A stretch of DNA of 64,000 nt from Myxococcales bacterium (GCA_019637115.1 JAHBWH010000022.1:762-64761), one strand, 5' to 3'. Counted from the first letter of the stretch, positions 3,205 to 61,148 are shown. Numbers and translations: made by a program. Notes: generated from the sequence alone by a model not told the origin.

Positions 3205-3239
3205 AACCGAGCCCTGTCGACAATTTCTGTTGACGCTCA

Positions 3240-3254: not shown

Positions 3255-3268
3255 AGTTCATCTTCGCC

Positions 3269-3505: not shown

Positions 3506-3521
3506 GCGAGCCGAGGCCACC

Positions 3522-9051: not shown

Positions 9052-9059
9052 ACGAATCT

Positions 9060-9090
9060 CCGCGAGCCGCTCTCTTCGGGCGGCTCGCGG
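9060..9090 (+). terminator. Hairpin CCGCGAGCCGC-tctcttcgg-GCGGCTCGCGG, 9 nt after the Kelch gene stop
   Basis: Perfect 11-bp stem read directly. There is no U-tract, which is common at high GC. Confidence 0.5.
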
Positions 9091-9119
9091 ACCCGTCGCC
9101 CAGGCGCCTCGTGCGAGGT

Positions 9120-9198
9120 CATGGGCGGCTCGACCCGAGATGCGCAGCTCCAACCCTTCGCGCTGAGGCGAGGGTGCCTACGGGTCGAGCCGCCCATG
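9120..9198. repeat. Perfect 18-bp inverted repeat (CATGGGCGGCTCGACCCG ... CGGGTCGAGCCGCCCATG) with a 43-nt spacer
   Basis: Read directly. It is intergenic, between the Kelch gene and the next lipoprotein gene. Confidence 0.85.
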
Positions 9199-11369: not shown

Positions 11370-11439
11370 GAGGGGTCGACCGCTCACGGAGCATACCACC
11401 CCCGCGTGCGCGCCACGCCGCCGCGCGCCACGCTGCCGC

Positions 11440-11751
11440 GCGACACCGACGGCGCGACACCGACGGCGCGACACCGACGCCGGTACCGACGCTGCGACAC
11501 CGAGGCTGCGAGCGACGCCGACGCTGCGAGCGACGCCAACGCTGCGAGCGACGCCGCGACGCCGACGCTGCGAGCGACGCCGCGACGCCGACGCTGCGAG
11601 CGACACCGCGACGCTGCGAGCGACGCCGCGACTCCGACGCGCGACACCGACGCGCGACACCGACGCCGCGAGCCGGTGGTGCGTCGGATCAGCGGGGCCG
11701 CTTCGGCTCGACGGCGCCGCTTCGGCTCGACAGCGCCGCTTCGGATCAGCA
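11440..11751. repeat. Composite GC-rich short tandem repeats (gcgacaccgac units, gacgctgcgagcgacgcc units, and 3 x 19-nt g(g/c)cgccgcttcgg(c/a)tc(g/a)(a/g)c)
   Basis: Read directly. It lies between two same-strand genes, and the last units abut the stop codon at 11746-11748. Confidence 0.8.
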
Positions 11752-12324
11752 GAGCCGCGTGAAGCAACCGGTCTGCATGGCGCCCCGCAGGCTGCTCGCG
11801 ATGTCGCTCGCGAGCGGGTCCAGACTCGCGAGGCGGTCAGTCCGGTCGACCCGCACCGCGCGGTGCGCGAACTGGTCGTCCTCGCCACATCCGCTCCAGA
11901 GCGAGTAGCCCCAGCCGTCCGCTTCGCTCCAGAGGTCGACGTAGATGTGTCGGGCCTCGCAGATCACGTGGCTCGCCGGATCCGCGACGCTCGCGTCGTG
12001 CCGCACCTGAGACATCATCGGCGCCGCGTCGCCGCGGAGCGCGAGCGCGAGCTCCTCCGCGAGCGACTCGTAGATGAGCGCGCGCTCGCCAGCGGGGAGC
12101 GACATGCCCACGTCCTTGAACGAGATGAGCGCGAAGGGCGCCTCCACCACCTCGATCAGGAAGGGGGAGTAGACGGGGTCAGGCGTCTCGGGTGCGAGGG
12201 CGACCGGGGCGACTGGGGCGACCGCACTGCTCACACCGCTCGAATGGCTCCCGGCAGAGCTCTCGCGGTCGGCGCCGCACGCGAAGAGAAGGATGACCGG
12301 GAGGAGACGAAGCAGGCGGGCCAT
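11746..12324 (-). CDS. Lipoprotein, hypothetical (192 aa)
   Basis: MARLLRLLPVILLFACG lipobox. It forms the C-terminal part of ORF 11746-13014, with ATG at 12322-12324. Confidence 0.65.
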   Translation of the reverse strand: MARLLRLLPVILLFACGADRESSAGSHSSGVSSAVAPVAPVALAPETPDPVYSPFLIEVVEAPFALISFKDVGMSLPAGERALIYESLAEELALALRGDAAPMMSQVRHDASVADPASHVICEARHIYVDLWSEADGWGYSLWSGCGEDDQFAHRAVRVDRTDRLASLDPLASDIASSLRGAMQTGCFTRLC

Positions 12325-12551
12325 GGGGAGCGTCGCCAGATGATGACAAATCTCAGCCCTATCCGCACGCCCACGGCTTCGATGCCAGCGATCAGCGGGC
12401 GCCGCGCGCACCCCCGCCCCTTTGAGCCAAGCTCGAGCCAGGCGTTCAGCGGGCCGTGCGCGCACCCCCGCCCGCTCAACGGCCGCCCCGAGCTCCCCGC
12501 GATCGGCGATCGGCGGGCACCACGCCCCCCTCTCCCCCTCGAGCGCAGCGA

Positions 12552-13328
12552 TCAGCGCGCCCCGCGCGTCAGCCACTGCCGGGTCATCCAGCCCACGAGG
12601 TGCTGGAGGCTGAAGCACTCTGGCGGGTGCAGCGACTCGGGATCCGCTGGCGCGCGAGCGTCGATCGTCTCGCGCGTCGAGGAGACGCGGATCGGCGTCC
12701 AGGCGGTGTCGTCGATGCGCGCGGCGCGGCAGTTGCCCCGCCGGTGGACGTTCGCCCACCGCTCGTCGAGCTCGCGCAGCTCGCCCCGGCCGAGTGGGCG
12801 CGCCTCGGTGCTCGCCGGGCATGCGGTCTCGGCGCTCGGCACCTCGCAGCCGACGAGCCCGGCGCTCGTGGCCTCGACCCGCAGCCACCGACCGTCGGCG
12901 TCCAAGCGGGCGACGACGACGCGATCGCGGAGCGCGTCGCTCGCCCCTTCGGTCGCGCGGTCGGCGGCGGGCTCGTCGCGCGGCCCGCCGACGTCGTCGC
13001 ACGAGTGCGCGCACTGCCCGGCGACGCAGCGGGGCTCGACCGCGCAGGCGCGTGGCGGCGTCGGAGACGGGATCGCAGGACAGACGACGCCCTCACAGCG
13101 GCGAGCGCGGGTCGCGCGCCGCCACTCGTCGAACGCGCGGCTGACCACCTCGGCGGGCACGCCGGTGTCACAGCAGAGGTCGGGGGAGGTCAGCGGCGCC
13201 GCCACGCAGTCGTCGTCCACGACGCAGCTCGCACGATCGGGCGCGCCAGGTTGTCCTTCCACCGTGGCGCCCTGCCGCGAGCCGGAGCACCCGACGAGGG
13301 TGAGGACGAGGAGCAGGAGCCAACGCAT
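12552..13328 (-). CDS. Cys-rich lipoprotein, hypothetical (258 aa)
   Basis: MRWLLLLVLTLVGCSG lipobox, with ATG at 13326-13328 inside ORF 12552-13511. Confidence 0.65.
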   Translation of the reverse strand: MRWLLLLVLTLVGCSGSRQGATVEGQPGAPDRASCVVDDDCVAAPLTSPDLCCDTGVPAEVVSRAFDEWRRATRARRCEGVVCPAIPSPTPPRACAVEPRCVAGQCAHSCDDVGGPRDEPAADRATEGASDALRDRVVVARLDADGRWLRVEATSAGLVGCEVPSAETACPASTEARPLGRGELRELDERWANVHRRGNCRAARIDDTAWTPIRVSSTRETIDARAPADPESLHPPECFSLQHLVGWMTRQWLTRGAR

Positions 13329-13389
13329 AGGTGAAGCGTAGGCCGCGGAGTCCCGTGCTGTCATCGCTGCGTTGGTGGGGGTGCGGGCC

Positions 13390-14394
13390 TCAGTCTGTGA
13401 AGCGCGCGAAGAAAGCAGCCGCGGCGGCGGTGCCGAAGCTCGGCCACACGTGCCCGCCAGGGTGCTCGCAATAATGGACGGGCGTGCTTTCGACGCAGCC
13501 GTCGTACGCAACGCACGGAGAGGGCTCGACCGCTCCCCTCGTCGCGTCGCAGCCCGCGGCGTCGCGGAAGAAGTCGCGGAACGCGGCGCGGCCGGCGTTC
13601 AGCTCCATCGCGCCGATGGTGATCCACGCCGCAGGCGTGCTGACACACTCACCCTCGCCGAAGTAGCGCACCGAGCCGCCGACCGCGATCGCGCGGATCC
13701 ACTCGCGGCGGCAGGCCAGCAAGCCGGAGAAGGATCCGCCGCCCGAGAAGCCCATCGAGAAGATCGCGTCGTCGTTCACGCAGAGCGATTCGCGCAGCGT
13801 GCTGCGGATGGCGTCGAAGTAGGCGAGCTCGAGCTCCACGCGGGCAGGCCACGTGTCGGCGGGCATGTCGTAGTCGCGCCAGTTGCCGCCGATCGCCTCG
13901 GCGATGACCAAAATCGCGGCGTCGCCGAAGGCCTCTCGCACGTTGCGGTCGCCGCTCGTTCCGTTCCAATACGACGCGCTGCCGCCGTTGCCGTGGAGCG
14001 CGAGCACGACCGGCCACGAACGCTCGCGGGTGTATCCGCTCGGCACGTAGAGCAGGAATCGACGCTCCATCCCGTCGAGCGTGAAGCGGTGCTCGCCGCT
14101 CTCCAGGCCCTCGCCCTCGACGCAGCCGGGGCTACCGATCGGGCCCGCGTCGTGCCCTGCGTCATCACCTGGCTGCGTGGCGTCGCCGCCCGAGTCGCGT
14201 GGCGGGACGAAGGCGTCGAGTCCGTTGGCGTCCTGCGGCGGGAGCCTGGCATCGGTCGAGGCGTCGGGCGCCTCGTCGTCGCCTCCGCAAGCGAGCGCGA
14301 CCAAGAGCGAGAGTGAGAGCGAGCGTGAGAGCAAGAGGGCGCGAGTCGTCACGGGCGACGAGGGTCTCACGCTGGCTGACCACGCGCTACTCAC
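13390..14394 (-). CDS. Secreted alpha/beta-hydrolase, PHB-depolymerase/feruloyl-esterase (LpqC-like) family
   Basis: Lipobox LLVALACGG; RRFLLYVPSGYTRERSWPVVLALHGNGGSASYW; nucleophile-elbow-like FSMGFSGGGSF; C-terminal HYCEHPGGHVWP. Confidence 0.7.
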   Translation of the reverse strand: MSSAWSASVRPSSPVTTRALLLSRSLSLSLLVALACGGDDEAPDASTDARLPPQDANGLDAFVPPRDSGGDATQPGDDAGHDAGPIGSPGCVEGEGLESGEHRFTLDGMERRFLLYVPSGYTRERSWPVVLALHGNGGSASYWNGTSGDRNVREAFGDAAILVIAEAIGGNWRDYDMPADTWPARVELELAYFDAIRSTLRESLCVNDDAIFSMGFSGGGSFSGLLACRREWIRAIAVGGSVRYFGEGECVSTPAAWITIGAMELNAGRAAFRDFFRDAAGCDATRGAVEPSPCVAYDGCVESTPVHYCEHPGGHVWPSFGTAAAAAFFARFTD

Positions 14395-14483
14395 GCGGGG
14401 AACGCTCCGGTTCCGCCCTCGCCACGCCGCTGGCTCCCCACAGCCCGACGCGGGAGCTCCTCATGCCGCCATGCGCGCATGGC

Positions 14484-15497
14484 TCAGCGTCGGCGCGGAG
14501 GCGCCTCCCAAACGGGGAGCAGCGCGCCATCCCGGCCGCGCGTCGCCTCGCGCGCAGCGACGTAGCGCGCGAGGCCGTGCGCGAACGTGGCGAGCGCGAG
14601 GCCCGCGATCACGTCGACAAGCCAATGCCAGCGTAAGAACATGGTCGCGACGATGATGTTCGCGGCGAAGAAGGCGAAGACGGGCCACGCCCGACGGAAG
14701 AGCGGCGTGTGGCGCCAGCGGCGCGCGTGGAGCGCGAAGAGCGTCGGATAGGCGGTGTGCAGCGACGGGAAGATGTCCATCTGGGCGCCTGCGCGTGCGA
14801 CCACCCGCTCGACCTGCGCCCAGAAGAAGCCTCCACGCAGGGGCCCCTCGAAGTCCGTCGCCCCGACGGGGCCGACGCCCGGCACGAAGGTGTAGAGAAC
14901 GTGACCGATCGACGCGACGAGGAGCGCGCCGATCATCAGCTCCGCCATGCGGCGCCCACGGTCGCAGGCCAGCGCCGGCACGATGACGAGCGGCATGAGC
15001 AGGAAGTACGAGAAGTAGAAGAAGGCGAACCACTCGACCACCCAGGGCTCGTTGAAGCGCTCGAACCAGACCGCGGGCGTCACGCCGACCAAGCGCTCGT
15101 CGAGGCGGTGCAGCAGGCCGTCCACGAGCGATGGGTCCAGCGCGGGCAGGAGCACACGCATCTGGAAGTAGCTCGCGACGATCGGCACGAAGAGGCCGAG
15201 CCGGTACACCCACACCCGCGCGTGGCCGGGCCGCAGGAGCTCGCCGCGCGTCAGCACGAGCGCGGTCGCGGTGGTCGCGAGCAGAGCGGCGCTGGCCTGG
15301 GCGGCGAGCGTCGCGTCGGCCGAGGGCGGCGCGAAGCGGAGGCGCGCGAGCATGAAGAAGTGGAAGGCCAGCGCGACGTGGTCCTGGAACGCCAGGTTCA
15401 TTCGGGCCCGCGTCAGCAGCTCGCCGAGGGTGCGCGTAGGCCGGAGGTCGGGGAGGTCCGTGGGCATGCGCTCTTGGCAGAGCACACACCGCGCCAA
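14484..15497 (-). CDS. PAP2-superfamily integral membrane protein
   Basis: Multiple transmembrane segments. FPSLHTAYP ... RWHWLVDVIAG matches the PAP2 C2/C3 motifs (PSxH ... HxxxD). The start is uncertain; the alternative is MPTDLPDL. Confidence 0.7.
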   Translation of the reverse strand: MARCVLCQERMPTDLPDLRPTRTLGELLTRARMNLAFQDHVALAFHFFMLARLRFAPPSADATLAAQASAALLATTATALVLTRGELLRPGHARVWVYRLGLFVPIVASYFQMRVLLPALDPSLVDGLLHRLDERLVGVTPAVWFERFNEPWVVEWFAFFYFSYFLLMPLVIVPALACDRGRRMAELMIGALLVASIGHVLYTFVPGVGPVGATDFEGPLRGGFFWAQVERVVARAGAQMDIFPSLHTAYPTLFALHARRWRHTPLFRRAWPVFAFFAANIIVATMFLRWHWLVDVIAGLALATFAHGLARYVAAREATRGRDGALLPVWEAPPRRR

Positions 15498-20496: not shown

Positions 20497-21596
20497 TCAC
20501 CAATACGCCTCGCCGACGACTGCCTCGTCCCACACGACACGGGAAGCTCGCTCCGACGACGATGCTGCTGACGAGCGCGCGTTCGACCCGCGCTGAGCAG
20601 GCGAACTATCCGGCGGGCTGAGCTGGGCGAGGGTGTCGTCGAGGAGAGGGCGGTCTTCGTCGCGGAGCGCTGCTGCAAGATAGCGCAGGATCGTGGAGAC
20701 GGCGTCAGCACCGCTGCGCGTGCGGAGGAGCCAGTGCCCCCAACCCGAAGTTCGTTCCGGGTTGCCACGGCCCTCAACGCGGATCTCGCTCGCCGACCTC
20801 CTCGAATAGGCTTTGGCCTGTCCTTCGTCGGCGCGGCAAACGACCTCCACGCCGATCATCCACGGCAACCCGGAACGAACTTCGGGTTGGGGGCACCGTC
20901 AAAGAGATGCGCGACGTGGCGGACCGTGCTCGGGGCGTCGCGGCGGGCGACGCTGCGCAGGGCCCAGAGCGCCAGCGTCCCCGCGGCGGGCAGGCCGCGC
21001 GCGACCAGCGCCGCGGGGGAGAGCGCCGTGAGGTCGTCGAGCAGGTAGCTCGTGCGCGGCGCGCAGCGCGTGAGCGGGCCGAGCGCGTCGAGCGGGCCGT
21101 AGAGCGCGTCGAGATCGAGCGGCGCGTTCCAGGGCCGCTCACCGCAATACACGACGACGGGGATGACGATCGGCAGAGGGCCGGCGTGCTTGCGGCGCGC
21201 GAGCCAGCGCTCGCTCGCGCGCATCTGGTAGCCGAGCACGCGCCACGCCATGTGCGGATGCGGCGTGCTCTGGTGCTCGATGAGGAGCTGGACGAGCGCC
21301 AGTGCGCCGTCGACCTCGATGGAGAAGAGCAGGTCGCTCGCGCTCTGCCGCAACGAAGGGTCGACGAACGCGCCCGACAGGAGCGTCAGCGTCGACCAGT
21401 CGGCGTTGTGCACGAAGGTCGACGGGAGGATGGCGCGCAGGAGGCTGCCGGCGTGGTCGGAGTCGGCGAAGATGCGGCGGAAGAGCCCGTCGTGGGGGTT
21501 GTGCGGGTCGACCGGCGGCTCGGTCGGCACGTCGGCTTCGGGACGCAGCGCGGGGGCGGGAGAGGCGGGCTCGGGCGGCTCGTCGTCGGGCGTCAT
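20497..21596 (-). pseudogene. Rpn-family recombination-promoting nuclease/putative transposase (PD-(D/E)xK, YhgA-like), interrupted by a 163-bp inverted-repeat element
   Basis: ORF 20856-21596: HDGLFRRIFADSDHAGSLLRAILP...SDLLFSIEVDGALALVQLLIEHQSTPHPHMAWRVLGYQM... is the Rpn/Transposase_31 pattern. Its reading frame runs into the right inverted repeat and stops (..HLFDGAPNPKFVPGCRG*). A protein-like continuation (LLRTRSGADAVSTILRYLAAALRDEDRPLLDDTLAQL...) resumes right after the left inverted repeat, in ORF 20497-20868. Confidence 0.65.
20734..20896. mobile_element. MITE-like element with 33-bp perfect terminal inverted repeats (GTGCCCCCAACCCGAAGTTCGTTCCGGGTTGCC / GGCAACCCGGAACGAACTTCGGGTTGGGGGCAC) flanking 97 bp
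   Basis: Inverted repeats at 20734-20766 and 20864-20896 were verified base by base as exact reverse complements. The element lies inside the Rpn-family coding region. I could not identify a clear target-site duplication. Confidence 0.6.
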
Positions 21597-21744
21597 CGGA
21601 CCTCCGGGTGGAGCCGCCTTCTCGACTCGAGCGGTGGTCAGTTGCGTAGGGTCCAGGGGTTGGAGTGCCCGCCCGCCGGACTACTTCTCGCTTCGTGCGA
21701 GGGACAAGGCCCTTCTCGTCGCGTTCGAGGTTCCTCGCTTCGTT

Positions 21745-22750: not shown

Positions 22751-22860
22751 GCGTTCCTCGCGCCGCGAGCTCCGGGCGTCGGCGAGAGCTGGCTCTGCTC
22801 GTTGGCAAGGGCGCAACAGAAGACGGGCCTCGCTATCCACGAGGCCGCGCTCGTGTCGCG
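22751..22860 (+). pseudogene. Truncated duplicate of the 5' end of the downstream HUH-transposase-like gene
   Basis: 22751-22860 aligns by eye with 23139-23246 at roughly 80-85% identity (AFLAPRAPGVGESWLCSLARAQQKTGLAIHEAALVS versus AFLAPWDPAVGESWLYSLAWAQQRTGLAIHQTALVA). The copy ends just before the HHH motif. Confidence 0.7.
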
Positions 22861-22954
22861 CCTCCTCGCCCCAGCACCCAATACCCCTACGCCCTCAGTC
22901 GACGTTCATGCCGAAGTGGTACCCCCTCAAGCGGGTGTGGTCGCGCTCCCCCAT

Positions 22955-22994
22955 CTGGCGGCCGCCAGGGATTGGCGGCGGATCCGCCGCCAAT
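22955..22994. repeat. Two adjacent perfect palindromes, CTGGCGGCCGCCAG (14 nt) and ATTGGCGGCGGATCCGCCGCCAAT (24 nt); the second is flanked by direct CCGCCAGGG repeats
   Basis: Read directly. It lies about 110 nt upstream of ATG 23103 of the HUH gene. Confidence 0.85.
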
Positions 22995-23102
22995 CCGCCA
23001 GGGGCATCGCGTCCAAGTGGTCGAGATCATTTGAGCGCGATCCCTGGAACGGAACTTGATTCGTCCGAGGGCGTGCAGCCCCGGCTCGTCACCCCCGGCG
23101 CG

Positions 23103-24488
23103 ATGGTCGCGCTCACGCGGCGCGCGACGCTTCGTCAAGCGTTCCTCGCGCCGTGGGACCCGGCCGTCGGGGAGAGCTGGCTCTACTCGCTCGCGTGGGC
23201 GCAGCAGAGAACGGGACTCGCAATCCACCAGACCGCGCTCGTCGCGAACCACCACCACACCGCCGTCACCCCGACCGACCGCGAGCTCGCCGAGGCCACG
23301 CGCAGCGCGCACCGCGACATGTCGTTCGCCATCAACGAGCTGCTCCTCCGCCACCGCCGCCCCATCGCGCGCGCCGTCTTCGATCCACGCCAGACGAACT
23401 GGACCACGTGCGTCGACGTCGAGGCCGAGATCAAGCGTCTCCTCTACGACGCGCTGAACGTGGTGGCGGCGGGGCTCGTCGAGCGACCCGAGCAGATGCC
23501 GTGGGGCCACTACTTCGGGTTCGAGCAGTGGCTGAAGGGACCCATCACGGTGAAGCGGCCGGAGTTGGAGCACTTCCAATACCGGCCCGAGGAGCTGACG
23601 CTCGAGCTCACGCCACCGGCCAAACTCTACCGGGCGTTCCGGGGCGACGTGCCGAAGCTCGTCGCGTACCTGAGCGAAGAGCTCGAGCATCAGATCGCCG
23701 ACGTCGCGAGCAAGCGCGAAGGCAGGCCTGCCCGTGGCCTCGAAGAGCTGCTGACCATCGACCCATGGAGCAAACCGAAGACGCTCGCGGAGCCGCGCTG
23801 GCGGCGCGTGCCGACGTGGGCCGTCGGCGCGGAGGGCGAGGTGGGCAAGCAGCGGCGCATGCGATCGTCGCTCGAGGTCCAAGCCCATCGCGCCGACAAC
23901 CGCGACCGCGTCCGCCAGCTGAAGGCGGGCGACTACACCAGCCCCGCGCCGCACGCCTCGCTGTGGCTCCGCGTCTTCCACAAGCTCGAGCTCGCCGAGA
24001 CCGGCCCCGACAACCTCCTCTGCACGAGCTACCCCACCCTCGCGCAGGTGAAGGTCGAGCTCGAAGAGGAGCGAGCGCGCGAAGCCAAAGAACAGCGCGC
24101 CGCCGAGCGACGCCGCGCCGAGGCGCGCAGAGCCCATCAGCTCGAGAAGCGCGCCGCCCACCGCGCCAAGCAGCGCGAGGCGAAGCGCGAAGAGCGCCAA
24201 GCCGCGCGGAGCGCGCGAGCCCGAGAGGCCGCCGAGCGCCACGCCGCGCGCCACGAAACCACCCACCGCGGCCCCAAGCCGGTATCGGCCCACCACGCGC
24301 TCGCCCCCGAACCCGAAGTCGACGCTGAAGCGCTCGCGTCGCTCACCCCGAGATCCGACTCTCGACGCGAGCCCGCGGATCCCGAGCCGACCCGCGAGCC
24401 CGACGCATCGCCCACCACCCACGCCGAGGCCGAGGCCGCCACCTCGTCGACCGACCGCGGCCGCCGGAGCGGCGACCCACCCGACTGA
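23103..24488 (+). CDS. HUH-superfamily Y1 (IS200/RAYT-like) tyrosine-transposase-like protein with a long charged/disordered C-terminal tail (461 aa)
   Basis: LAIHQTALVANHHHTAVTP (HUH-type motif), followed about 66 residues later by IKRLLYDALNVVAAGLVERPEQMPWGHY (the Y...N(P/V)V.AGLV pattern of COG1943/REP-associated transposases). The C-terminal ~200 aa are E/R/A-rich (EEERAREAKEQRAAERRRAEARRAHQLEKRAAHRAKQREAKREER...). The start was taken at ATG 23103 within ORF 22908-24488. Confidence 0.6.
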   Translation: MVALTRRATLRQAFLAPWDPAVGESWLYSLAWAQQRTGLAIHQTALVANHHHTAVTPTDRELAEATRSAHRDMSFAINELLLRHRRPIARAVFDPRQTNWTTCVDVEAEIKRLLYDALNVVAAGLVERPEQMPWGHYFGFEQWLKGPITVKRPELEHFQYRPEELTLELTPPAKLYRAFRGDVPKLVAYLSEELEHQIADVASKREGRPARGLEELLTIDPWSKPKTLAEPRWRRVPTWAVGAEGEVGKQRRMRSSLEVQAHRADNRDRVRQLKAGDYTSPAPHASLWLRVFHKLELAETGPDNLLCTSYPTLAQVKVELEEERAREAKEQRAAERRRAEARRAHQLEKRAAHRAKQREAKREERQAARSARAREAAERHAARHETTHRGPKPVSAHHALAPEPEVDAEALASLTPRSDSRREPADPEPTREPDASPTTHAEAEAATSSTDRGRRSGDPPD

Positions 24489-24767
24489 CCGCAGACGCGC
24501 GCCCGCCGCGCTGCCCGGCCCGGCACCAGCCCGAGCCGGGCGTCGCTCCGTCCGTCACCACGGATTCGCGGGCCGCCCTACCCCTCGAGGCCCTCCGACG
24601 ACCCGCCGCGCCCCCGGCGGCCCGCCGGCTTGCCCCCTTCCGCCTGGTACCCGGTACCGACTACTGAGCCTCGGACCGACTACTGAGCCTCTCTCGTGCG
24701 ACTCGGGAGAAGGCACGCAGCGAGAGGAGACGAGGGTACCCCGGTGGGGGGCGCGCGGGGGCGCGAT

Positions 24768-24791
24768 CGTCTACCCCATTTGGGGTAGACG
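24768..24791 (-). terminator. Palindromic hairpin CGTCTACCCCATTTGGGGTAGACG, 17 nt downstream of the stop of the helicase operon
   Basis: 11 complementary base pairs around a TT centre, read directly. It lies just after stop codon 24809-24811 on the minus strand. Confidence 0.5.
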
Positions 24792-24808
24792 AGGCGCGTG
24801 GCGGGGGG

Positions 24809-25897
24809 TCAGCTCAGCACCTCGACGTGGGTCGGCGACTCGAGCACGTGCTTGCGCCCGTAGCGCCGGAGCGTCCCACGCACCGACAGCAGCTGGCGGT
24901 CTCGATGAGCGTCCACGGCTTTGCGGTAGTCGTCCGGACCGAGAGTGCAGCGTGCGCGAACGAGCGCGTCCTCGACCTCGGTCGTGAGCACGATCTCCCC
25001 TTCGAGCTCGTCGTTGGCGTTCTCGATCCCGTGAAGGTCGGAGACCCGCCCGACGAAGCGCATCTCTCGGGCGGCGCTCGGCGGACGAAGCGCGCTCGCC
25101 AGCTCGTCGAAGGAGGCGAAGAGCCCCCGCTCGATACGCACGAGGGCGGGCGGGTCGACGATCGGAACCACCGGCGAGAACGTCGCGCCGATCTCGAGAT
25201 CCGCGCCCTCGTCGGGCGGCAGCATGGTCACGACGGCCTCGGTCAGGTTTGCCGAGATGATGGGCTCCTCCGCGTCCACGACCGCCTTGACGCCGTCCCT
25301 GCGCAGAACGCGGACCGTCTTTGCCAACGAAGACAGCAGCGTCGTCAGAGTCTGTCGTCCGAACTCGGCGCGCTCGGGGTGATCGGGCAAGTCGATGGGG
25401 CAGTGAATCAAGAGGGTGAAGCTGCCGCGCTCCGTGGCGCCCAGACGGCACGCTTGCAGGAGGGCCTGCGGAGCGGTCCGCGACATGCGGGGATGAAACC
25501 GGGTGTTCGGCACTTCGACCTGGTGTGCAGCGGCCAAGAGCGAGCGTTGTGCACCGGTCAGGAAGGTAGCCGCGGCTGACAGATCGATTGTCCCATCCTC
25601 GACCGACTGCCCCGTGCGCCGGAACCGGGCGTGATCGGTCCGAGGGTGCGTCAGGTCCGCCAGCACTCCTTCGACGGGTCGCTGCTCGTGGCGCGCGATG
25701 GTTCGCGCGGCGCGGGCCATGACCTCCGCGTAATCCGAGAGGGTGGGTTCCACGGCGAGGATGACGTCTTCGTCGTCCGCGCGGTACGCGGCGATGTCGT
25801 CGCGCGGGGTCTGGAGTCTTTCCCACCCGCGTGACTCGAGGTACGCGCGGACCGCCGCGAACTCGATTCGTTCCGCCTTCGGCTCCAGGGCGCTCAC
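24809..25897 (-). CDS. Hypothetical protein (362 aa), third gene of the SNF2-helicase operon; no domain recognised
   Basis: The long ORF starts with GTG (25895-25897), 1 nt after the TGA of the upstream gene. Its composition is protein-like (MSALEPKAERIEFAAVRAYLESRGWERLQTPRDD...FVGRVSDLHGIENANDELEGEIVLTTEVEDALVRARCTLGPDDYRKAVDAHRDRQLLSVRGTLRRYGRKHVL). Confidence 0.7.
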   Translation of the reverse strand: MSALEPKAERIEFAAVRAYLESRGWERLQTPRDDIAAYRADDEDVILAVEPTLSDYAEVMARAARTIARHEQRPVEGVLADLTHPRTDHARFRRTGQSVEDGTIDLSAAATFLTGAQRSLLAAAHQVEVPNTRFHPRMSRTAPQALLQACRLGATERGSFTLLIHCPIDLPDHPERAEFGRQTLTTLLSSLAKTVRVLRRDGVKAVVDAEEPIISANLTEAVVTMLPPDEGADLEIGATFSPVVPIVDPPALVRIERGLFASFDELASALRPPSAAREMRFVGRVSDLHGIENANDELEGEIVLTTEVEDALVRARCTLGPDDYRKAVDAHRDRQLLSVRGTLRRYGRKHVLESPTHVEVLS

Positions 25898-25898
25898 G

Positions 25899-26435
25899 TC
25901 AAACTCTCCCTTCGGTTCGGACCTTGTCCATCAGGACCCGCAGCGCGTCCGGGTCGAACACGTTGTTCGGCGGAATCATGACGCGCTCTCTCGTTTCGTT
26001 CTGCATAGCCAGGCCGCGGAGCGAGACCCAGTAGCCACAGCGCCGAAGCACGAGCGCGTCCTGCGAGTGGCCGACCCAAGTCGCTTCGTCCGCCGGGAGC
26101 GTGACCACCACCAGGATCCGCGGGATGTCGGTGTCTTCCGAGAGGTCCTAGAAATTCTTTCGTTTGACGTAGTAATCGAACGGGCTCGGCAAGGGGTCGA
26201 CCACATGCGCCTTCACCTGAACCTTGAGCTCTGCGACGCGAAGCTGCCCTGGCGGCACCTCCTGGAGACGATGCGACAGCATGACGTCCGTGCTGTCTCG
26301 GTCGACGCGGATGAACTCGGTCGCGCATTCGGCCCGCGTCGCGACGGCATAGACGTACGCGAGGGCGAGGTGTTCCTTGATGTCGTTGCCGAAGAGCATG
26401 TCGTTCCGTCGGGTGGCAGCCAGGATCTTAAGCAC
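25899..26435 (-). pseudogene. DUF4365-like (restriction-endonuclease-fold) protein with an in-frame TAG at 26148-26150
   Basis: ORF 26148-26435 (..GNDIKEHLALAYVYAVATRAECATEFIRVDRDSTDVML...LKVQVKAHVVDPLPSPFDYYVKRKNF*) and ORF 25899-26111 are in the same frame. After the TAG the read-through gives DLSEDTDIPRILVVVTLPADEATWVGHSQDALVLRRCGYWVSLRGL...VMIPPNNVFDPDALRVLM, matching my recollection of the DUF4365 layout (D..D...Q(V/L)K ... P.iLvv..lP.d...W...l.lr...YW.sL.g). Confidence 0.6.
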
Positions 26436-26512
26436 AGACGAGGGGTCGGGTCACCGACTGACGCGCCCGCTGCTCCGCGGGACCGGGCTGACCGAAGCCC
26501 AGAAGCGGACGC

Positions 26513-29488
26513 TCACCGCCGACTGACCGCGGCGACCAGCGCGTGCGCCCCCGCCTCGTCGAGCGCCGAGCCGACGAAGAGCGCCGCGAGCCGGAGGTAG
26601 GGGGCGTCGACGGTGCTGAGGCGCTCGGAGACGAGCTCGCGGCCCGCCTCGAGCGCGCGCTCGACCTCGGCGCGCTCGCGGACCAGGCGCGCGGCGAGGT
26701 CTTTGCGGAGGGCGCCCTTCGCGCCGAGCTCGGCCTCGCGGGCCGCGAGCGCCGTGAGGCGCGCGTCGGCCCACGCGCGGAGGCGCTTCTGCGTGCGCTT
26801 GAGCTCGGGCCGGAGCGCGTCGCCGCGTGCGGCGCGGAGCGCGCGGACGTGCGCCTCGGCGTGGGCGATGAAGGGCGCGCGCAGCGGCTCGAGGGCGGCG
26901 GTCGGGAGCGAGGCGCCGTCGTTGTGGAGCTCGGCGTCGAGGCCGATCTGCGACGCGAAGGTCTCGAGCGGTACGAGGTCGATCGCGCCGTCCTCGCGCG
27001 CGATGAGCGCGCTCCAGTCGACGAGGACGGGCTGGCTCGCGCGGTTCGAGAGCACGCCCTGCACGAGCGCTGCGGCGCCGCGCGCGGGCAAGCCGCGGTG
27101 GGCGCGGAGGACGGGCGCCTCGTGGCGCGCGAAGTGCGCGAGCACGCGGTCGTCGATCCACTCGAGCACCGGGTGGAGGGGCCAGAGGAGCTGCCACTCG
27201 GGGAAGCCGCGCGTGCCCGTGGGATCGTCCGCGGACTTCTCGCGCGCGCGGGCGTAGCTGCGCTGGACGACGTCGCGCTGCGCGGTGAGCTTGAAGTGCG
27301 TGGCGCCGCGGGGGCCGCGCAGCTCGGGCGGCAAGAGGCGCAGTCGGCGCTCGAGGTCGTCGGGGGCGGTGAGCACGAGGCCCTCGAGCTCGGGCGCGGG
27401 GTCGACGCGCAGCGCGAGGCCCGCGTCGCGCAGCTCGTGGAGGGCGCTCTCGACGTAGGCGAGGTCGCTCGCGTAGAGCGCCGCGCGCGCCCCCTTCTCC
27501 GGGTGGATGGCCTCGAAGCCGTCGCCCTCGGCGCGGTAGCCGATGTTGGCGTCGGCGAGGACGGCAGCCTCTTCGCCTTCGAGCGGGGCGTCGAGGAGCG
27601 CGAAGAGCGCGTCGAGGCCGGCGGGGCCTTCGTCGAGCGCTTCGCCGACGAGCTCTTCCTCGGCCTCGGCGGAGAAGCAGCGCATCAACCATTGGACGTC
27701 GCCGAGCGCGTCGTGGGCGCGGCGCTCTTTGTCGATGAGCACGTCGAGGACGCGGAGGTCCCCCTGGGCGCCGCGCTCGCCCGTCGGCGTGAAGAGGAGG
27801 TAGTGGACCTCGGGGGCGTGGGTCTGGCCGAAGCGATCGATGCGGCAGTTGCGCTGCTCGAGGGTGATGAGCGACCAGGGGATGTCGTAGTGGACGAGCT
27901 GGTGGCACTCGTGGTGGAGGTTGAGGCCTTCGGCGGCGGCGTCCGAGCCGAGGAGGACACGCAGCGGCGCGTCCTTGGCGCCGAAGCGGCGCGTGACGTC
28001 GCGCTGGTCGACGTCGGAGAGGCCGCCGTGAAAGAGCGCGAGCTCGTCGTCGGCGAAGCCCTCGGCGCGGAGGCGGTCGTGGAGGACCCGCAGCGTCTCG
28101 AGGCGCTCGGCGAAGAGGACGACGCGCGTGGGCGCGCCAGGGGCGACGCCGAGCTCGCCGAGCAGGGCCCAGAGGCGCGGCCATTTGGCCCCCGCAGGGT
28201 CGAGCGGCGCGGCGAGCGCGGCCAAGTGATCGAGCGTGGCGAGGTCGCGCGCGAGCGCGTCGCGCTGCTCGTCGGAGGGGTCGGTCTCGAGGCGCCGAGC
28301 GACGCGGGCCCGGCGGGACGCGAGGGTCTGCGAGAGCGCGGCGGGCGACGAGAGGAGGCTCTTGAGCAGGAGGGTGCGGAAGAGGACCCCTTTGCCGCCG
28401 GGGCGCTGGGCGGCGGGGCGGATCGTCTCGAAGGTGGCCGCGTGGAGCGCGGCGACGAGGGCGTCCTCGGCCTCGCTCGCGCCGACCTCGTAGCGGTGGA
28501 GGCGCCGCTCGCGGAAGCGGTCCTCGCCGAGGGCGACGTCCTTCTTGAAGCGGCGGACGTAGAGGTCGCGGATGTCGTCCTTGGTGTAGCGCTCGGGATC
28601 GGGGAGCGCGGTCGGGTCCAAGAGCTCGATGAGGCTCGCGAAGCTCTCGGCGCGGCCATCGTGCGGGGTGGCGCTCGCGAGGATGAGCGCGTCGGTGGTG
28701 CGCGCGAGCAGGCGCGCGAGCTGCGCGCGCTGGCTGCCGTGCCGGGTCGCGCCGCGGAGGGCGACGTGCTGGCATTCGTCGATGACGACGGCGTCCCAGC
28801 GGCATTGCTCGAGCAGGCGCGCGTATTTCGCGTCGTTCTTGAGCGTGTCAATGGAGACGATGACGCGGTCGTAGTGGTGGAAGGGGTTGGCGCTGGACGG
28901 GAGCTCGCGGGCGATGCGCGTGAGCCCAACGGAGTCGAGGCGGACGAGGGGGATGGTGAAGCGGGCCCAGAGCTCGGTCTGGAACTGCTCGAGGACGCTC
29001 TTGAGCGCGACGACGAGGATGCGGCGCCCGCGCCCGCGCCGGATGAGCTCGGTGAGCAGCACGCCGACCTCGATGGTCTTGCCGAGGCCGACGGCGTCAG
29101 CGAGGAGGATGCGGGGCTGGGTGCGCACGAGAGCCTGCGCGGCGGGGACGAGCTGGTAGTCGCTCGGGTCGATGGCGGCGCGGTGGCCGAGGTGGATGCG
29201 CTCGTCGGTGGGCGGCGTGCGGCGGAGGAGGCTCTCGAGATAGAGGCGCGTGCGGCGGTAGCCGGGGGAAGGGTCGGCGACGAGCGCGGTGTCGCGCGGG
29301 TCGAGGAGGACGGCGCGGTCGAGGCCTGGATGCAGGAAGATGGTCTCGCGATCGCGGACGAAGTCGCTGAGGCCGGTGACGTGGAGCTCGACGTCGCCGT
29401 AGCCGGTGGGCTTGGCGCGGCGGACGAGCCACTCGGCGTCACGGACGAGGACGCGGGCGCCGGGTGGGAAGGTGGTCTCGGTCTGCAT
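26513..29488 (-). CDS. SNF2/RapA(HepA)-like superfamily-2 helicase/translocase, 991 aa
   Basis: N-terminal Tudor-like GARVLVRDAEWLVRRA; motif I LLADAVGLGKTIEVG; motif II VVIDECQHV; ILASATPHDG; helicase-C VLLGSDAAAEGLNLHHECHQLVHYDIPWSLITLEQRNCRIDRFGQ; and a ~400-aa C-terminal extension with WPLHPVLEWIDD (compare RapA WEHPLIRNGLD). Confidence 0.9.
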   Translation of the reverse strand: MQTETTFPPGARVLVRDAEWLVRRAKPTGYGDVELHVTGLSDFVRDRETIFLHPGLDRAVLLDPRDTALVADPSPGYRRTRLYLESLLRRTPPTDERIHLGHRAAIDPSDYQLVPAAQALVRTQPRILLADAVGLGKTIEVGVLLTELIRRGRGRRILVVALKSVLEQFQTELWARFTIPLVRLDSVGLTRIARELPSSANPFHHYDRVIVSIDTLKNDAKYARLLEQCRWDAVVIDECQHVALRGATRHGSQRAQLARLLARTTDALILASATPHDGRAESFASLIELLDPTALPDPERYTKDDIRDLYVRRFKKDVALGEDRFRERRLHRYEVGASEAEDALVAALHAATFETIRPAAQRPGGKGVLFRTLLLKSLLSSPAALSQTLASRRARVARRLETDPSDEQRDALARDLATLDHLAALAAPLDPAGAKWPRLWALLGELGVAPGAPTRVVLFAERLETLRVLHDRLRAEGFADDELALFHGGLSDVDQRDVTRRFGAKDAPLRVLLGSDAAAEGLNLHHECHQLVHYDIPWSLITLEQRNCRIDRFGQTHAPEVHYLLFTPTGERGAQGDLRVLDVLIDKERRAHDALGDVQWLMRCFSAEAEEELVGEALDEGPAGLDALFALLDAPLEGEEAAVLADANIGYRAEGDGFEAIHPEKGARAALYASDLAYVESALHELRDAGLALRVDPAPELEGLVLTAPDDLERRLRLLPPELRGPRGATHFKLTAQRDVVQRSYARAREKSADDPTGTRGFPEWQLLWPLHPVLEWIDDRVLAHFARHEAPVLRAHRGLPARGAAALVQGVLSNRASQPVLVDWSALIAREDGAIDLVPLETFASQIGLDAELHNDGASLPTAALEPLRAPFIAHAEAHVRALRAARGDALRPELKRTQKRLRAWADARLTALAAREAELGAKGALRKDLAARLVRERAEVERALEAGRELVSERLSTVDAPYLRLAALFVGSALDEAGAHALVAAVSRR

Positions 29489-29626
29489 GCTAGTGGTGCT
29501 CGGCGGGTGCTCGAAGGTAGCAGCCTGATGGCGGCAACGATCGGACGAGGCGATGAGAACGACCGTGGGTCCGGACCTTCTGTCTCGAGGGCGCCGCGCG
29601 GCGCGAGCCCGCGCGCTGCGGCGGCG

Positions 29627-30229
29627 TCACTCCGGGGGCGGCGGGGGCTCGCCCGCCTCCTCGAGCGCCTGCTGCAGGTTGTCGCGACGCGTGCGGAGGC
29701 GATCCGCCGTCCGCTCGAGCCATTGCACGCGGGCGGCGTCCCCCGCCTCGCGAGCGACCTCGATCTCCGGGACGATCGAGAGCAAGAGCCGGTTCGCGAT
29801 GTCGAGGCTCTGGACGTTGCGCAAATAAACGCCGCGCGCGCGGGCGGCCTCCTGCTCGGGGGTGAGGACCAGGCGCGGGGGCGGCGCAGCCCTCACCGGC
29901 CCTCCGACGGCCTGGTCGACGGCGGCCCCCTCACGCCCCGGGATCTCGGGGTCGGCCTGCTCGCTTGCCTCGGGTGCGCCGCTGGGCGAGCCCGCGAGCG
30001 CCTCCACCTCGCGCGCGAGCTCGTCGAGACCCGTAGGCACCTCGCCCGCGGCGCCCTCGCCCTCCTCCAGCGCCGGCTCGCGCCAGACGAGGCCCGCGTC
30101 CTCCGGAACGCTCGCGGCGGGCGGCGGCGCGTCATCGGACGGGCGAAGCACGAGCCACACGCCAACCGCGACCAGCGCGAGCACACCGACGTACGCCGCG
30201 ACCTTCACACACGCCGACATGTCACACAC
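29627..30229 (-). CDS. Membrane-anchored hypothetical protein (200 aa) with a Pro/Glu-rich linker and a C-terminal helical region
   Basis: The N-terminal transmembrane segment is VAAYVGVLALVAVGVWLVL. It is on the same strand as, and upstream of, the SNF2 gene, and divergent from the kinase gene with a 52-nt gap. Confidence 0.55.
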   Translation of the reverse strand: MCDMSACVKVAAYVGVLALVAVGVWLVLRPSDDAPPPAASVPEDAGLVWREPALEEGEGAAGEVPTGLDELAREVEALAGSPSGAPEASEQADPEIPGREGAAVDQAVGGPVRAAPPPRLVLTPEQEAARARGVYLRNVQSLDIANRLLLSIVPEIEVAREAGDAARVQWLERTADRLRTRRDNLQQALEEAGEPPPPPE

Positions 30230-30281
30230 GAGCGCGCGCGACCAGCCGTGATTCGGGGCGTGAACGCGGTATGCTCTCCGC

Positions 30282-32078
30282 GTGCTCGATCGGGGTCAGC
30301 GTCGACGGCTCGGCCGATACGAAGTCCTGTTCCGACTCGCCGCGGGCGGTATGGCGGAGGTCTTCGTCGGCCGCCTCGTCGGGGAGGGCGGCTTCATCCG
30401 CTACGTCGCGATCAAGCGGATGCTCCCGCACCTCGCCGAAGACGCGCGCTTCGTCCAGATGTTCCTCGACGAAGGGCGGCTCGCTGGTCACGTGTCGAGC
30501 CCGCACGTCGTCCCCGTCCTGGACGTGGGCCGCGACGACGAGGGCGCGCTCTTCATCGTGATGGAGCTCGTGCGCGGCGTGGCCCTCCATGGGCTGATCG
30601 TCGCCGCCCGCAAGGGGGACGAGCGCCTCGTCCCGCTCGACGTCGCCCTCACGATCCTCTCGGACGCCGCGCGCGGTTTGCACGACGCCCACGAGGCCGT
30701 GACGCCGCTCGGCGAGCCGATGGCCCTCGTGCACCGCGACATCTCGCCACAGAACCTGCTCGTGGGGGTCGACGGGCGCACGCGCATCACGGACTTCGGC
30801 GTCGCGCGGGCGATCCAGCGGAACACCGCGACCGTCGCGGGTGAGCTGAAAGGCAAGCTCGGCTACTTCGCGCCAGAGCAGGCCAAGGGCCAGGTCGACC
30901 GCCGCACGGACGTCTTCGCCCTCGGCATCGTCGCTTGGGAGATGCTCGTCGGTCGACGGCTCTTCGACGGCGATAGCCCGCTCGAGCGCCTCGAGAAGGT
31001 CCAGCGCATGCCGATCCCTTCGGCGCGCTCCCTCCGCCCCGAGATCCCGGCGGAGCTCGACGCGGTCGTCTCGCGTGCCCTGCAGCGCGATCCGTCCGAG
31101 CGTTTCCAGACGGCTGGCGAGCTCGCGGCCGCGCTCCGACAGGCCGGCGTGCGGCCCGCCGACGCCGACGAGGTCGGCGCCTTCGTGCGCGCGACGATCC
31201 CCGACGCCCTCCAGACGCTAGAGGCGCGTCTCGTCCGCGCGGCCCGGGAGGACGCCGAAGGCCCCCGAACCGCAGAGCTCCTCCCCGACGGCGAGCATCG
31301 CACCTCGGTCGAGCACGTGACGCCGCTCGCCGACCACGACCTGCTCGAGGGGACACACGCGCACGACCCGACGCGCGTGCGGACTTCGGTCACGCCCCGG
31401 CTCGACCCCGTGCCGCTGGAGCCCGAGGCCGCGTCCGGCCGAAGAGGTCCCGTCGTCGCCTTGGTCGCCGCCGTCGTGCTCGTCGGCGCGGGTCTCGGCG
31501 GCGCGATGGCGCTGCGGGCGCCCGACGCGCCCGCGACGACGGCGACGGCGCGACCCGCGATGGAAGTCGAGGTGCCCGCGCCGGAGGCGACGCCCGACGC
31601 GCCCGAGCGCTCGGCCGAGGCCTCGTCCGTGACGCCGCCCAGCTCGGACTCGCGGACGACGAGAGCCCGCGGACGTCGAGCCCGCGCCATGGCTGATGGC
31701 GAAGCCGACACGAGCCTCGAGCGCTCTGCCAACGAGGCCGCCCGACCGGCCCAGATCGCCCACCCCGCCACCACGACCCAGACCGGGCAAACCCAGGGCG
31801 GCCAAACCCAGCGCGGCCAAACCCCGGCCGCGCAAACCCAGACCGCGCAAGCCCAGGCCGCCCCGGCCGTTCAGCCCGAGCAAGCCCAGGCCACCCCGAC
31901 TCAGGCTGCCCAGACCCAGGTGAACCGGTCGCAGACCACTGCGCGAGCCTCCGGCACGCCCGCGCCATCGCGCGACACCACCACGCCACCGAACGCGCCC
32001 GCTGCAGCGCCGGCTGCGTCTCCTTCGCGGCCTGGCGCCTTGCGCGGCGTCGACGCCTTCGACCGTGGAGTCCGATGA
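30282..32078 (+). CDS. Ser/Thr protein kinase (Hanks-type) with a Thr/Gln/Ala-rich low-complexity C-terminus
   Basis: GRYEVLFRLAAGGMAEVF..VAIKRM, HRDISPQNLL, ITDFGVARA, GKLGYFAPEQ. It has a GTG start at 30282 and a transmembrane-like segment VVALVAAVVLVGAGLGGAMAL. Confidence 0.9.
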   Translation: MLDRGQRRRLGRYEVLFRLAAGGMAEVFVGRLVGEGGFIRYVAIKRMLPHLAEDARFVQMFLDEGRLAGHVSSPHVVPVLDVGRDDEGALFIVMELVRGVALHGLIVAARKGDERLVPLDVALTILSDAARGLHDAHEAVTPLGEPMALVHRDISPQNLLVGVDGRTRITDFGVARAIQRNTATVAGELKGKLGYFAPEQAKGQVDRRTDVFALGIVAWEMLVGRRLFDGDSPLERLEKVQRMPIPSARSLRPEIPAELDAVVSRALQRDPSERFQTAGELAAALRQAGVRPADADEVGAFVRATIPDALQTLEARLVRAAREDAEGPRTAELLPDGEHRTSVEHVTPLADHDLLEGTHAHDPTRVRTSVTPRLDPVPLEPEAASGRRGPVVALVAAVVLVGAGLGGAMALRAPDAPATTATARPAMEVEVPAPEATPDAPERSAEASSVTPPSSDSRTTRARGRRARAMADGEADTSLERSANEAARPAQIAHPATTTQTGQTQGGQTQRGQTPAAQTQTAQAQAAPAVQPEQAQATPTQAAQTQVNRSQTTARASGTPAPSRDTTTPPNAPAAAPAASPSRPGALRGVDAFDRGVR

Positions 32079-44988: not shown

Positions 44989-45029
44989 GCGCGCCTCACT
45001 CCTTCACTCCCGCGGCGTTCGCGGGCGCA

Positions 45030-45533
45030 TCACCCCCACGGGCTCGCGGCGGCGGGCGGTCCAGCCACGGCGGTAGCTGCCTTCGAGTGTCCCGCATACC
45101 CCTCGAGCTGCTCGACGTTCTCGATGTCGTTGGTCATCTTCACGTATTTGCCGCTCTTCAAGCGGATGTCGACGATGGTGTGCTCCCCCTTCAGGTGCAT
45201 CGAACGACCGCTGCGGTAACGGGTCACCTCCACGTTGTCGATCTCGTCGTAGCGCACCACGACGTCAGCCCGGAGCAGGCGCTTCCACTCGAAGCCCTCG
45301 GTGTGGATGACCAAGGTCTGCTTCCAGCGCGTGAAGAACCAGAAGAGGACACTGCCCAGGACTGGCAGGGCGATCACGAAATAGAGGATCTCGTCCATGT
45401 TCCCCGCGACGATCGCCTTGCCCGCACCGACGATGCTGGCGACGAACATGATCCCCACGACGTACCAACCGAGGCCCCCGGCCGCGAGACGCCCGTGGTG
45501 CTCGCTGATGACCTGTCCGAGTTGCTTGTCCAT
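45030..45533 (-). CDS. Membrane protein with a C-terminal PH-like (bPH/YdbT-like) region, hypothetical (167 aa)
   Basis: Two transmembrane segments (GLGWYVVGIMFVASIVGAG, ILYFVIALPVLGSVLFWFF), then VIHTEGFEWKRLLRADVVVRYDEIDNVEV. ATG at 45531-45533. Confidence 0.55.
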   Translation of the reverse strand: MDKQLGQVISEHHGRLAAGGLGWYVVGIMFVASIVGAGKAIVAGNMDEILYFVIALPVLGSVLFWFFTRWKQTLVIHTEGFEWKRLLRADVVVRYDEIDNVEVTRYRSGRSMHLKGEHTIVDIRLKSGKYVKMTNDIENVEQLEGYAGHSKAATAVAGPPAAASPWG

Positions 45534-45534
45534 C

Positions 45535-46314: not shown

Positions 46315-46322
46315 CTAGCCGC

Positions 46323-47633: not shown

Positions 47634-47663
47634 CAGCAGGGCGGCCCGAAGGCCGCCCTGCTG
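47634..47663 (-). terminator. Strong hairpin CAGCAGGGCGGCC-cgaa-GGCCGCCCTGCTG, 24 nt downstream of the sucA stop
   Basis: Perfect 13-bp stem and 4-nt loop, read directly. Confidence 0.7.
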
Positions 47664-47686
47664 AGACAGTCTGGCCGACGAGTCCG

Positions 47687-52738: not shown

Positions 52739-56893
<4,155 letters not shown>

Positions 56894-57005: not shown

Positions 57006-61148
<4,143 letters not shown>

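Follow-up and report, generated by a model that had tools for sequence, protein, structure and literature searches.

The 145 "phage defence candidates" (PDC), which are not yet assayed, were collected by Payne et al. (2024, bioRxiv 10.1101/2024.01.29.577857) through "guilt-by-embedding", as cassettes nested in BREX, DISARM and type I restriction-modification (RM) loci, and these authors read such embedding as the co-localisation of independent systems. One of them, PDC-M02, is given in their supplement as a two-family cassette (CAS_00021, FAM_01850>>FAM_00842) beside the number 894, apparently an instance count, and is itself a bioinformatic candidate without a proposed mechanism. The domain DUF4365, which concerns us below, is in SPARDA a non-specific DNase activated by target recognition, with Q62 and K64 as active-site residues in TmuRE (PMC10810196). 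Divona, a validated integron-cassette defence gene in which an N-terminal nuclease of the DUF4365/Mrr-like type is joined to a crr6 domain (bioRxiv 10.1101/2024.07.02.601686), provides a further precedent for a DUF4365 defence effector outside Argonaute systems. Here we report on a 4.7-kb stretch (24809-29488) of a 64-kb piece of Myxococcales DNA (JAHBWH010000022.1:762-64761; "the window" hereafter), in which an SNF2 helicase gene is followed by a DUF4365 gene and a gene for a 362-amino-acid (aa) protein. The locus is a decayed instance of the known candidate PDC-M02 beside an orphan DrmD/RapA-like helicase, and is not a novel three-gene system.

A preliminary description had presented the three genes as one compact operon. 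All three genes proved to lie where it had placed them, and so did the TAG within the DUF4365 frame, the 1-nt gap and the hairpin at the end, the palindrome spanning 24767-24792. The features are as follows.

26513-29488, minus strand: SNF2 helicase gene, 991 aa, intact, with the motifs GLGKT, DECQH and SATP (Pfam).
25899-26435, minus strand: DUF4365 gene (PDC-M02A), a pseudogene by one nonsense codon (Pfam, PADLOC).
26148-26150, minus strand: in-frame TAG of the DUF4365 gene (sequence, homologue alignment).
25904-25913, minus strand: Shine-Dalgarno-like GAAGGGAGAG, preceding the M02B GTG within the 3' end of the DUF4365 gene.
24809-25897, minus strand: gene for the 362-aa protein (PDC-M02B), intact, GTG start (PADLOC).
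24767-24792, minus strand: hairpin (palindrome) 16 nt past the M02B stop, with an 11-bp stem and a 4-nt loop.

The three minus-strand genes are real, with Pfam and PADLOC E-values of 1e-13 to 1e-105 and a codon-position GC that is that of coding sequence, and their earlier classing as defence-type genes holds. Since the GC content of the window is ~72%, long spurious open reading frames (ORFs) are common in it; a plus-strand ORF of 1433 aa (26543-30844) overlapping the helicase gene was rejected as a high-GC shadow, its translation being of low complexity. For the DUF4365 gene, the ATG at 26397-26399 is a more likely start than the GTG at 26435, since it matches the N-termini of homologues. 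From this ATG, the gap between the helicase and DUF4365 genes is 113 nt, and not 78 nt as previously given.

The M02B GTG, separated by 1 nt from the TGA of the DUF4365 gene on the same strand, is preceded by the Shine-Dalgarno sequence GAAGGGAG, the location of which inside the end of the DUF4365 gene suggests translational coupling of M02A and M02B. The hairpin at 24767-24792 is the probable end of the transcription unit; the 63-nt hairpin fold gave z = -5.4, none of 200 shuffles folded equally well, and no T-run or U-tract was present 3' of it. The spacer between the helicase and DUF4365 genes contained no significant structure and nothing terminator-like (z = +0.7).

When the two downstream proteins were compared with the PADLOC models, the DUF4365 protein, with its stop codon masked as X, matched the PDC-M02A model PDLC04278 at 1.7e-44 (residues 16-176, profile 5-165 of 167), and the 362-aa protein matched the PDC-M02B model PDLC04323 at 4.8e-105 (residues 8-361, profile 10-372 of 374). 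Indeed, every PADLOC model matched by the nuclease (all 25) and by its partner (the best 25 of 36) was PDC-M02A or PDC-M02B. The two genes are adjacent on the same strand in the order A then B (FAM_01850>>FAM_00842), and order, strand and tight coupling are as in other instances of PDC-M02; the window differs by the nonsense codon, which truncates gene A, so that only one of the two genes of the cassette is intact. From these profile matches, we assign 24809-26435 to PDC-M02, a widespread mobile two-gene unit. Two of the three genes that were thought to stand outside any named system are thus covered by existing models.

The M02A protein, of 166-178 aa, has DUF4365 as its only Pfam match (3.6e-16) and is predicted to be a DREN-type PD-(D/E)xK restriction-fold nuclease; the effector of restriction fold with a nonsense codon, as first described, was hence recovered. 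The D...VQVK segment, which holds the QxK catalytic motif and is comparable to Q62/K64 of TmuRE, is kept upstream of the TAG. The TAG itself sits where homologues have N or D in the conserved N-Y-N-D-L (N-F-stop-D-L in the window), and truncates the protein after ~83 residues, removing the C-terminal half. Because of this truncation, the M02 cassette of the window is most likely dead. The DUF4365 PD-(D/E)xK domain with its QxK motif is common to SPARDA and the window pair, and by this analogy the pair would probably likewise be a licensed, non-specific nuclease. However, the pair has no APAZ and no Argonaute, the partner being an unrelated OB-fold protein in which Pfam detected no Piwi or MID domain and Foldseek against the PDB no Argonaute match. 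Neither M02A nor M02B gave a meaningful match when its sequence was searched against the PDB.

Loss of the nuclease is not confined to the window. Among the 17 non-redundant loci with an intact M02B (window counted), about 7 have a broken gene A or none at all, in a sample that is small and consists partly of metagenome-assembled genomes (MAGs). The DUF4365 gene carries two in-frame stops in locus L006 (6192-6761, identical to L023 9382-9951), an internal deletion in L007 (9716-11110) fuses 52 N-terminal DUF4365 residues to M02B, and L008 (9106-9957) retains at most a C-terminal remnant of ~20 aa, which was recognised by eye and not detected by the profile. No A gene was detectable upstream of M02B in L002, L025 and L010, and L014 (8972-9568) is a further locus listed with the DUF4365 gene broken or missing. 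ORFs of 283 aa (L008) and 293 aa (L007) upstream of M02B, considered as alternative partners, were rejected as junk frames. Since the lesions that can be placed lie at different positions, they represent independent events, and the repeated inactivation of M02A while M02B persists suggests that the nuclease is costly or toxic.

The 362-aa M02B protein indeed lacks any Pfam or NCBIfam match, in line with the initial impression of a protein without a nameable domain; it is nevertheless the PDC-M02B family member described above and has a C-terminal OB fold in its model. A profile search yielded 5643 representative clusters at E <= 1e-3, nearly all of 360-400 aa, with a conserved motif, G-x-T-E-R-G-S-F, within the first ~270 residues. 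In the AF2 model (pLDDT 93.7, pTM 0.82), the last ~90 residues (aa ~275-361) are predicted to form a beta1-beta2-beta3-alpha-beta4-beta5 arrangement, the OB-fold topology. Foldseek matched this domain to SSB, RPA, Stn1 and PriB (E 1e-3 to 1e-1, target TM-score 0.45-0.66), and the modelled fold points to nucleic-acid sensing by M02B. This fold and the frequent nuclease loss or breakage are the new observations on PDC-M02 made here.

The genomic contexts of M02B were sampled at 21 non-redundant loci besides the window. These comprise metagenomic contigs, MAGs of Planctomycetota, Armatimonadota, Chloroflexota, Bacillota and a deltaproteobacterium, annotated plasmids of Phaeobacter, Entomospira and Pusillibacter, and the Leptospira plasmid-prophage LE1; a search with a 5-sequence alignment yielded 11 genome loci and 6 metagenome loci. 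A DUF4365 gene was found immediately upstream of M02B, which it either adjoins or overlaps, in ~14 of the 21 loci (10 intact, 1 cut by a contig end and 3 broken), including L001, L009, L012, L024, L026, L027, three plasmids (three phyla) and the phage LE1, and M02B was present on 10 plasmids. No helicase of the window's family occurred at any of the 21 loci; only a generic SNF2-like gene, 33% identical in its core, lies ~8 kb from M02B in L013. The M02 genes lie between DrmMI (E = 0 and 5e-290) and DrmA (3.5e-277) in L002, L008 and L009, which together with, probably, L025 represent one related DISARM lineage. They adjoin Type IIG or Type II methyltransferase genes in L012, belong to the p28 defence island in Entomospira, and stand as pairs alone, without helicase-methyltransferase neighbours, in L001, L024, L026, L032 and L034.

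Two of these loci deserve a separate description. In LE1 (L035, BX571876; 38735-43418, minus strand), an intact PDC-M02 pair, LE1-0038 (DUF4365) and LE1-0037 (M02B), lies directly downstream of LE1-0039, a complete MmeI-type Type IIG RM gene. This pair was detected by structure search only, with a full-length match of M02B to Q6NE06 (E = 6e-20); sequence-level BLAST missed LE1. In L009, from an Isosphaeraceae MAG, the DISARM genes around M02 look degraded (833-4954, 8852-9179, 11381-15048): DrmMI and DrmA are broken up into several frames, the C-terminal ~110 codons of DrmMI recur as a second copy just upstream of M02A, and M02B has a frameshift near its 3' end.

These contexts bear on what the pair does. 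An addiction role, in which DUF4365 would be the toxin and M02B its neutraliser, so that the pair would primarily be a toxin-antitoxin module stabilising mobile elements, fits the translational coupling, the carriage on plasmids and on a plasmid-prophage, and the loci with a lost or broken nuclease and an intact partner (the window, L006, L007, L008, L002, L025 and L010), which resemble orphan antitoxins. We nevertheless consider this unlikely as the primary role, given that gene B, with its ~370 aa and its OB fold, does not resemble the usual small antitoxins and that the pair occurs in defence settings, for example the p28 island of Entomospira and the DISARM loci; such a role would not exclude defence, since many abortive-infection systems are toxin-antitoxin-like. 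It is similarly improbable that helicase-methyltransferase systems (DISARM-like or Type IIG) employ PDC-M02 as a functional accessory, for instance as a back-up nuclease arm, in which case its place beside a DrmD-like helicase would be a sign of cooperation and not just of embedding. Many M02 pairs stand alone, the DISARM-embedded cases come from one lineage, and Payne et al. take embedding as co-localised independent systems, against which can be set the position of M02 between DrmMI and DrmA (L002, L008, L009), beside Type IIG/Type II methyltransferase genes (L012) or MmeI (LE1), and beside the DrmD-like helicase of the window.

Quite unlikely is a reading in which PDC-M02 does not stand alone but serves helicase-methyltransferase immunity (DISARM-like or Type IIG) as an attached nuclease arm. 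Single-stranded DNA (ssDNA), produced by SNF2/DrmA translocases on unmethylated invader DNA, would then be sensed by the OB-fold protein, which would unleash DUF4365, and the window would be the relic of a hybrid of a RapA-like helicase and PDC-M02, in which the cassette replaced the methyltransferase or restriction subunit.

The helicase itself contains the Pfam domains SNF2-rel_dom and Helicase_C. Its core, and only its core, matched the PADLOC models of DrmD (1.4e-96, the best-scoring models) and HmaA (4.6e-58), and it also resembles BrxH models, whereas the N-terminal 101 aa and the C-terminal 412 aa matched no PADLOC model. In NCBIfam, the protein scored 327 bits against a cut-off of 610 for DrmD and 149 bits against a cut-off of 576 for RapA (NF003426), so that neither equivalog level was reached. 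The best solved-structure match for the core was RapA (2e-30), a sequence match of aa 103-566 only. The C-terminal region, conserved across the helicase family and modelled with moderate confidence (pLDDT 73.9), gave one significant PDB match by Foldseek, E. coli RapA (8spg, E = 6e-6, 387 columns). Since the region is conserved in this way and matches RapA, the ~400-aa C-terminal "extension" reported earlier is present, but belongs to a family-wide RapA-like architecture and is not peculiar to this gene. From these profile and structure matches, we classify the helicase as an SNF2 translocase of RapA-like architecture that is DrmD-like in its core only. Its dN/dS against the homologue in L003 is ~0.38, a value that tells little, because the extreme GC at third codon positions (GC3, 0.96) depresses dS.

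Thousands of full-length homologues of the helicase exist (47-77% identity), many of them in Myxococcota, and nine non-redundant homologue loci were inspected. An orthologous Eco57I/MmeI-type methyltransferase of 1400-1584 aa lies downstream in seven of them, and the contig ends in the other two. It follows immediately in L003, L004, L005, L017, L021 and L031, and in L019 is separated from the helicase gene by 7 kb of embedded genes, toxin-antitoxin genes among them. These methyltransferases are 44-53% identical among themselves and are classed by PADLOC as Type IIG REase-MTase (~1e-216 to 1e-228), with weaker DrmMI matches. A conserved domain of ~120 aa lies upstream of the helicase in seven loci, as a gene of its own or at the C-terminal end of a ~1000-aa protein; further downstream, a DEAD + Helicase_C + DUF1998 (DrmA/B-like) gene is found in L021 and an AAA_5 protein in L017, an arrangement that resembles DISARM. 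DUF4365 and M02B were found at none of the nine loci.

In the 64-kb window, tblastn detected no trace of the DrmMI/Type IIG methyltransferase, of a DrmA/B-like gene or of the ~120-aa domain; even at E <= 1, the window holds no remnants of the partner genes, including the ~1000-aa protein. Of the genes around the 77%-identical homologue in L003, none is present in the window either, and the two loci have no common synteny. The helicase of the window is hence an orphan that lacks both the methyltransferase and the ~120-aa partner usually found upstream.

With class 1 DISARM, the helicase shares the DrmD-like core, and its homologues share the succession of a helicase and an Eco57I-family methyltransferase, accompanied in L021 by the DEAD + DUF1998 gene. 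However, the DrmD score stays below the equivalog level, the terminal regions match no DrmD model, the partner methyltransferase of the homologues fits PADLOC Type IIG (1e-216) better than DrmMI (1e-57), and the window has no DrmMI, DrmA, DrmB or DrmC. With Hma (HmaA SNF2 helicase, methylase and ATPase), the likeness consists of the partial HmaA core match and of the embedded cassettes that Hma loci, like those of the helicase family, hold; the window has neither a methylase nor an ATPase partner. As for Hachiman and Hna, no HamA/HamB or Hna model was among the best 25 of the 39 PADLOC matches of the helicase.

With E. coli RapA (HepA), the helicase has in common the SNF2 core, the C-terminal fold and a similar overall length. 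It is, however, very unlikely that it is a vertically inherited housekeeping RapA orthologue, which would recycle RNA polymerase and merely stand beside an inserted cassette. Although RapA ranks first among solved structures for the core and is the sole match for the C-terminal region, some sources call the homologues RapA, and the GC3 (0.96) is the one typical for the host genome, the NCBIfam RapA score falls far below its cut-off, and the homologues are consistently coupled to the giant Eco57I-type methyltransferase in variable defence-type contexts with embedded toxin-antitoxin modules. The lack of synteny with the closest homologue likewise speaks against this reading, and the family appears tied to RM-type partners and not to housekeeping inheritance.

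Several loci of the helicase family showed features of their own. Cargo of ~7 kb lies between the SNF2 gene and the methyltransferase in L019 (12798-20025) and L020 (2854-10081). It includes a TacA-type toxin-antitoxin pair and a Tricorn/PD40-like protein, together with an RHH-PIN pair in L020 and RHH alone in L019, and is a clear case of embedding in the helicase-methyltransferase family. On Myxococcota-type contigs, a conserved module was found in L004 (1924-13075), L029 (301-9536), L005 (6751-17149) and L030 (406-6485), with the order dynamin-like GTPase (~820 aa), DEAD/ResIII helicase (~770 aa), ~1000-aa protein, RapA-like SNF2 and Eco57I-type methyltransferase (1400-1580 aa). Its ~1000-aa protein has RNA_pol_A_CTD and Sigma70_r4 domains, and the C-terminal ~120 aa form a separate gene elsewhere; PADLOC gave no match for that of L004 and a marginal MzaA match (1.4e-4) for that of L005. 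This module is apparently undescribed; it is arguably less charted than PDC-M02 and may be more novel than the three-gene arrangement from which the work started. In L029 (6903-9536), P0008, a homologue of the helicase (66% identity, 877 aa), diverges entirely past about residue 700, which may reflect a frameshift and thus another decaying copy.

Taken together, the 4.7-kb stretch is very probably composed of two separate defence-type modules lying side by side, one of them broken and the other without its partner genes. The composition of the genes differs sharply, with a GC of 74.4% and a GC3 of 0.96 for the helicase, 62.6% and 0.82 for the DUF4365 gene, and 68.6% and 0.84 for M02B, a contrast that is consistent with separate histories. 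The adjacency is nevertheless not due to chance, since PDC cassettes are defined by nesting in DISARM, BREX and RM loci and since M02 cassettes lie beside DrmMI/DrmA or MmeI-type genes in several other loci; loci of the helicase family also accept cargo between helicase and methyltransferase, as in L019 and L020. In the simplest reading, the M02 cassette would have landed in, or replaced part of, a helicase-methyltransferase locus, the remainder of which was then lost.

As for the mechanism of an intact cassette, we propose that gene B (~370 aa) would act as a sensor or regulator that is translationally coupled to A and forms a complex with the nuclease. The C-terminal OB fold of B would bind nucleic acid, probably ssDNA or replication intermediates, and on infection B would license the nuclease, leading to DNA degradation as abortive infection or in a toxin-antitoxin-like manner.

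Several points weigh against the reading as two modules or against its details. Among the papers searched, none names PDC-M02. The context sample is modest (21 M02B and 9 helicase loci, from pattern searches), and four of the DISARM-embedded M02 loci share one lineage. The individual matches to the modelled OB fold are weak (E 1e-3 to 1e-1), and for the N-terminal ~270 aa of M02B the Foldseek and PDB searches gave no structural relative. Since nothing terminator-like lies between the helicase and DUF4365 genes, the helicase and the pair may be co-transcribed and hence functionally linked in this genome, and the intact helicase may still do something alone. No tRNA genes, flanking direct repeats or other insertion scars were found around the cassette, so the history of insertion and deletion proposed above is an inference.

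That helicase, nuclease and 362-aa protein form one system, in which the translocase would recruit or activate the nuclease through an adaptor, is highly improbable in spite of the common strand, the tight spacing, the lack of a detectable terminator between helicase and nuclease and a design logic like that of Hachiman and DISARM, because the families do not co-occur (0 of 21 M02B loci and 0 of 9 helicase loci), PDC-M02 is defined as a two-gene cassette, the helicase family has conserved partners of its own, absent from the window, and the GC and GC3 of the helicase contrast sharply with those of the pair. The preliminary description had itself named a match to an existing model and a lack of co-occurrence as findings that would speak against the trio, and both were obtained.

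With the stretch read as two modules, a tempting three-gene defence "system" becomes a catalogued two-gene candidate and an unrelated orphan helicase, which is of value for annotation. The locus is a worked example of how embedding of a cassette in DISARM/RM loci, followed by decay, yields spurious operon-like trios. For studies of PDC-M02, the confident M02B model, the carriage on plasmids and LE1, and the repeated inactivation of the nuclease with B kept should be useful.

Finally, we inspected the neighbourhood in the window, in which two genes flank the M02B end of the stretch.

20856-21680, minus strand: YhgA/Rpn-like Transposase_31 gene (Pfam 9.2e-39).
22908-24488, plus strand: gene for a rare 526-aa protein, convergent with M02B, with no Pfam or PADLOC match.

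The first of these had been taken for an HUH-transposase-like gene, and is instead the Transposase_31 gene given above; the broken DUF1844 gene reported beside it was not recovered, as no flanking ORF tested matched DUF1844. The 526-aa protein has seven distant homologues, one of them named 'putative transposase'. The context described as island-like is thus right as to mobile-element-type genes in the flanks, but PADLOC found no other defence genes among 12 further ORFs of the window, so that it does not amount to a multi-system defence island. Beyond these parts, the window is ordinary chromosome, with genes such as those for 2-oxoglutarate dehydrogenase E1, an ABC-F protein and an acyl-CoA dehydrogenase.

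Some minor features were also recorded. A perfect 33-nt inverted repeat (20734-20766 and 20864-20896), the arms of which are 97 nt apart, spans the 3' end of the YhgA-like gene and may be an element like a miniature inverted-repeat transposable element (MITE) or a repetitive extragenic palindrome (REP), or may mark where a mobile element ends. For the 526-aa ORF, a 115-nt direct repeat (22751-22865 and 23139-23253) with 80% identity lies at and upstream of its start, the copies being 388 nt apart, which is no multiple of 3. Directly upstream of the helicase gene, a minus-strand ORF (29627-30295; 200-222 aa) encodes a predicted membrane-spanning stretch and a Pro/Ala-rich low-complexity region; it has no family matches and bears no relation to the ~120-aa domain found ahead of the helicase elsewhere. 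The GC content falls to ~65% at 45-47 kb (45000-49000), with low-GC3 ORFs that include a DUF6585-like protein, and at the right end (52739-61298) lie two minus-strand ORFs of 1395 and 1430 aa, which by size alone would be rpoC/rpoB.

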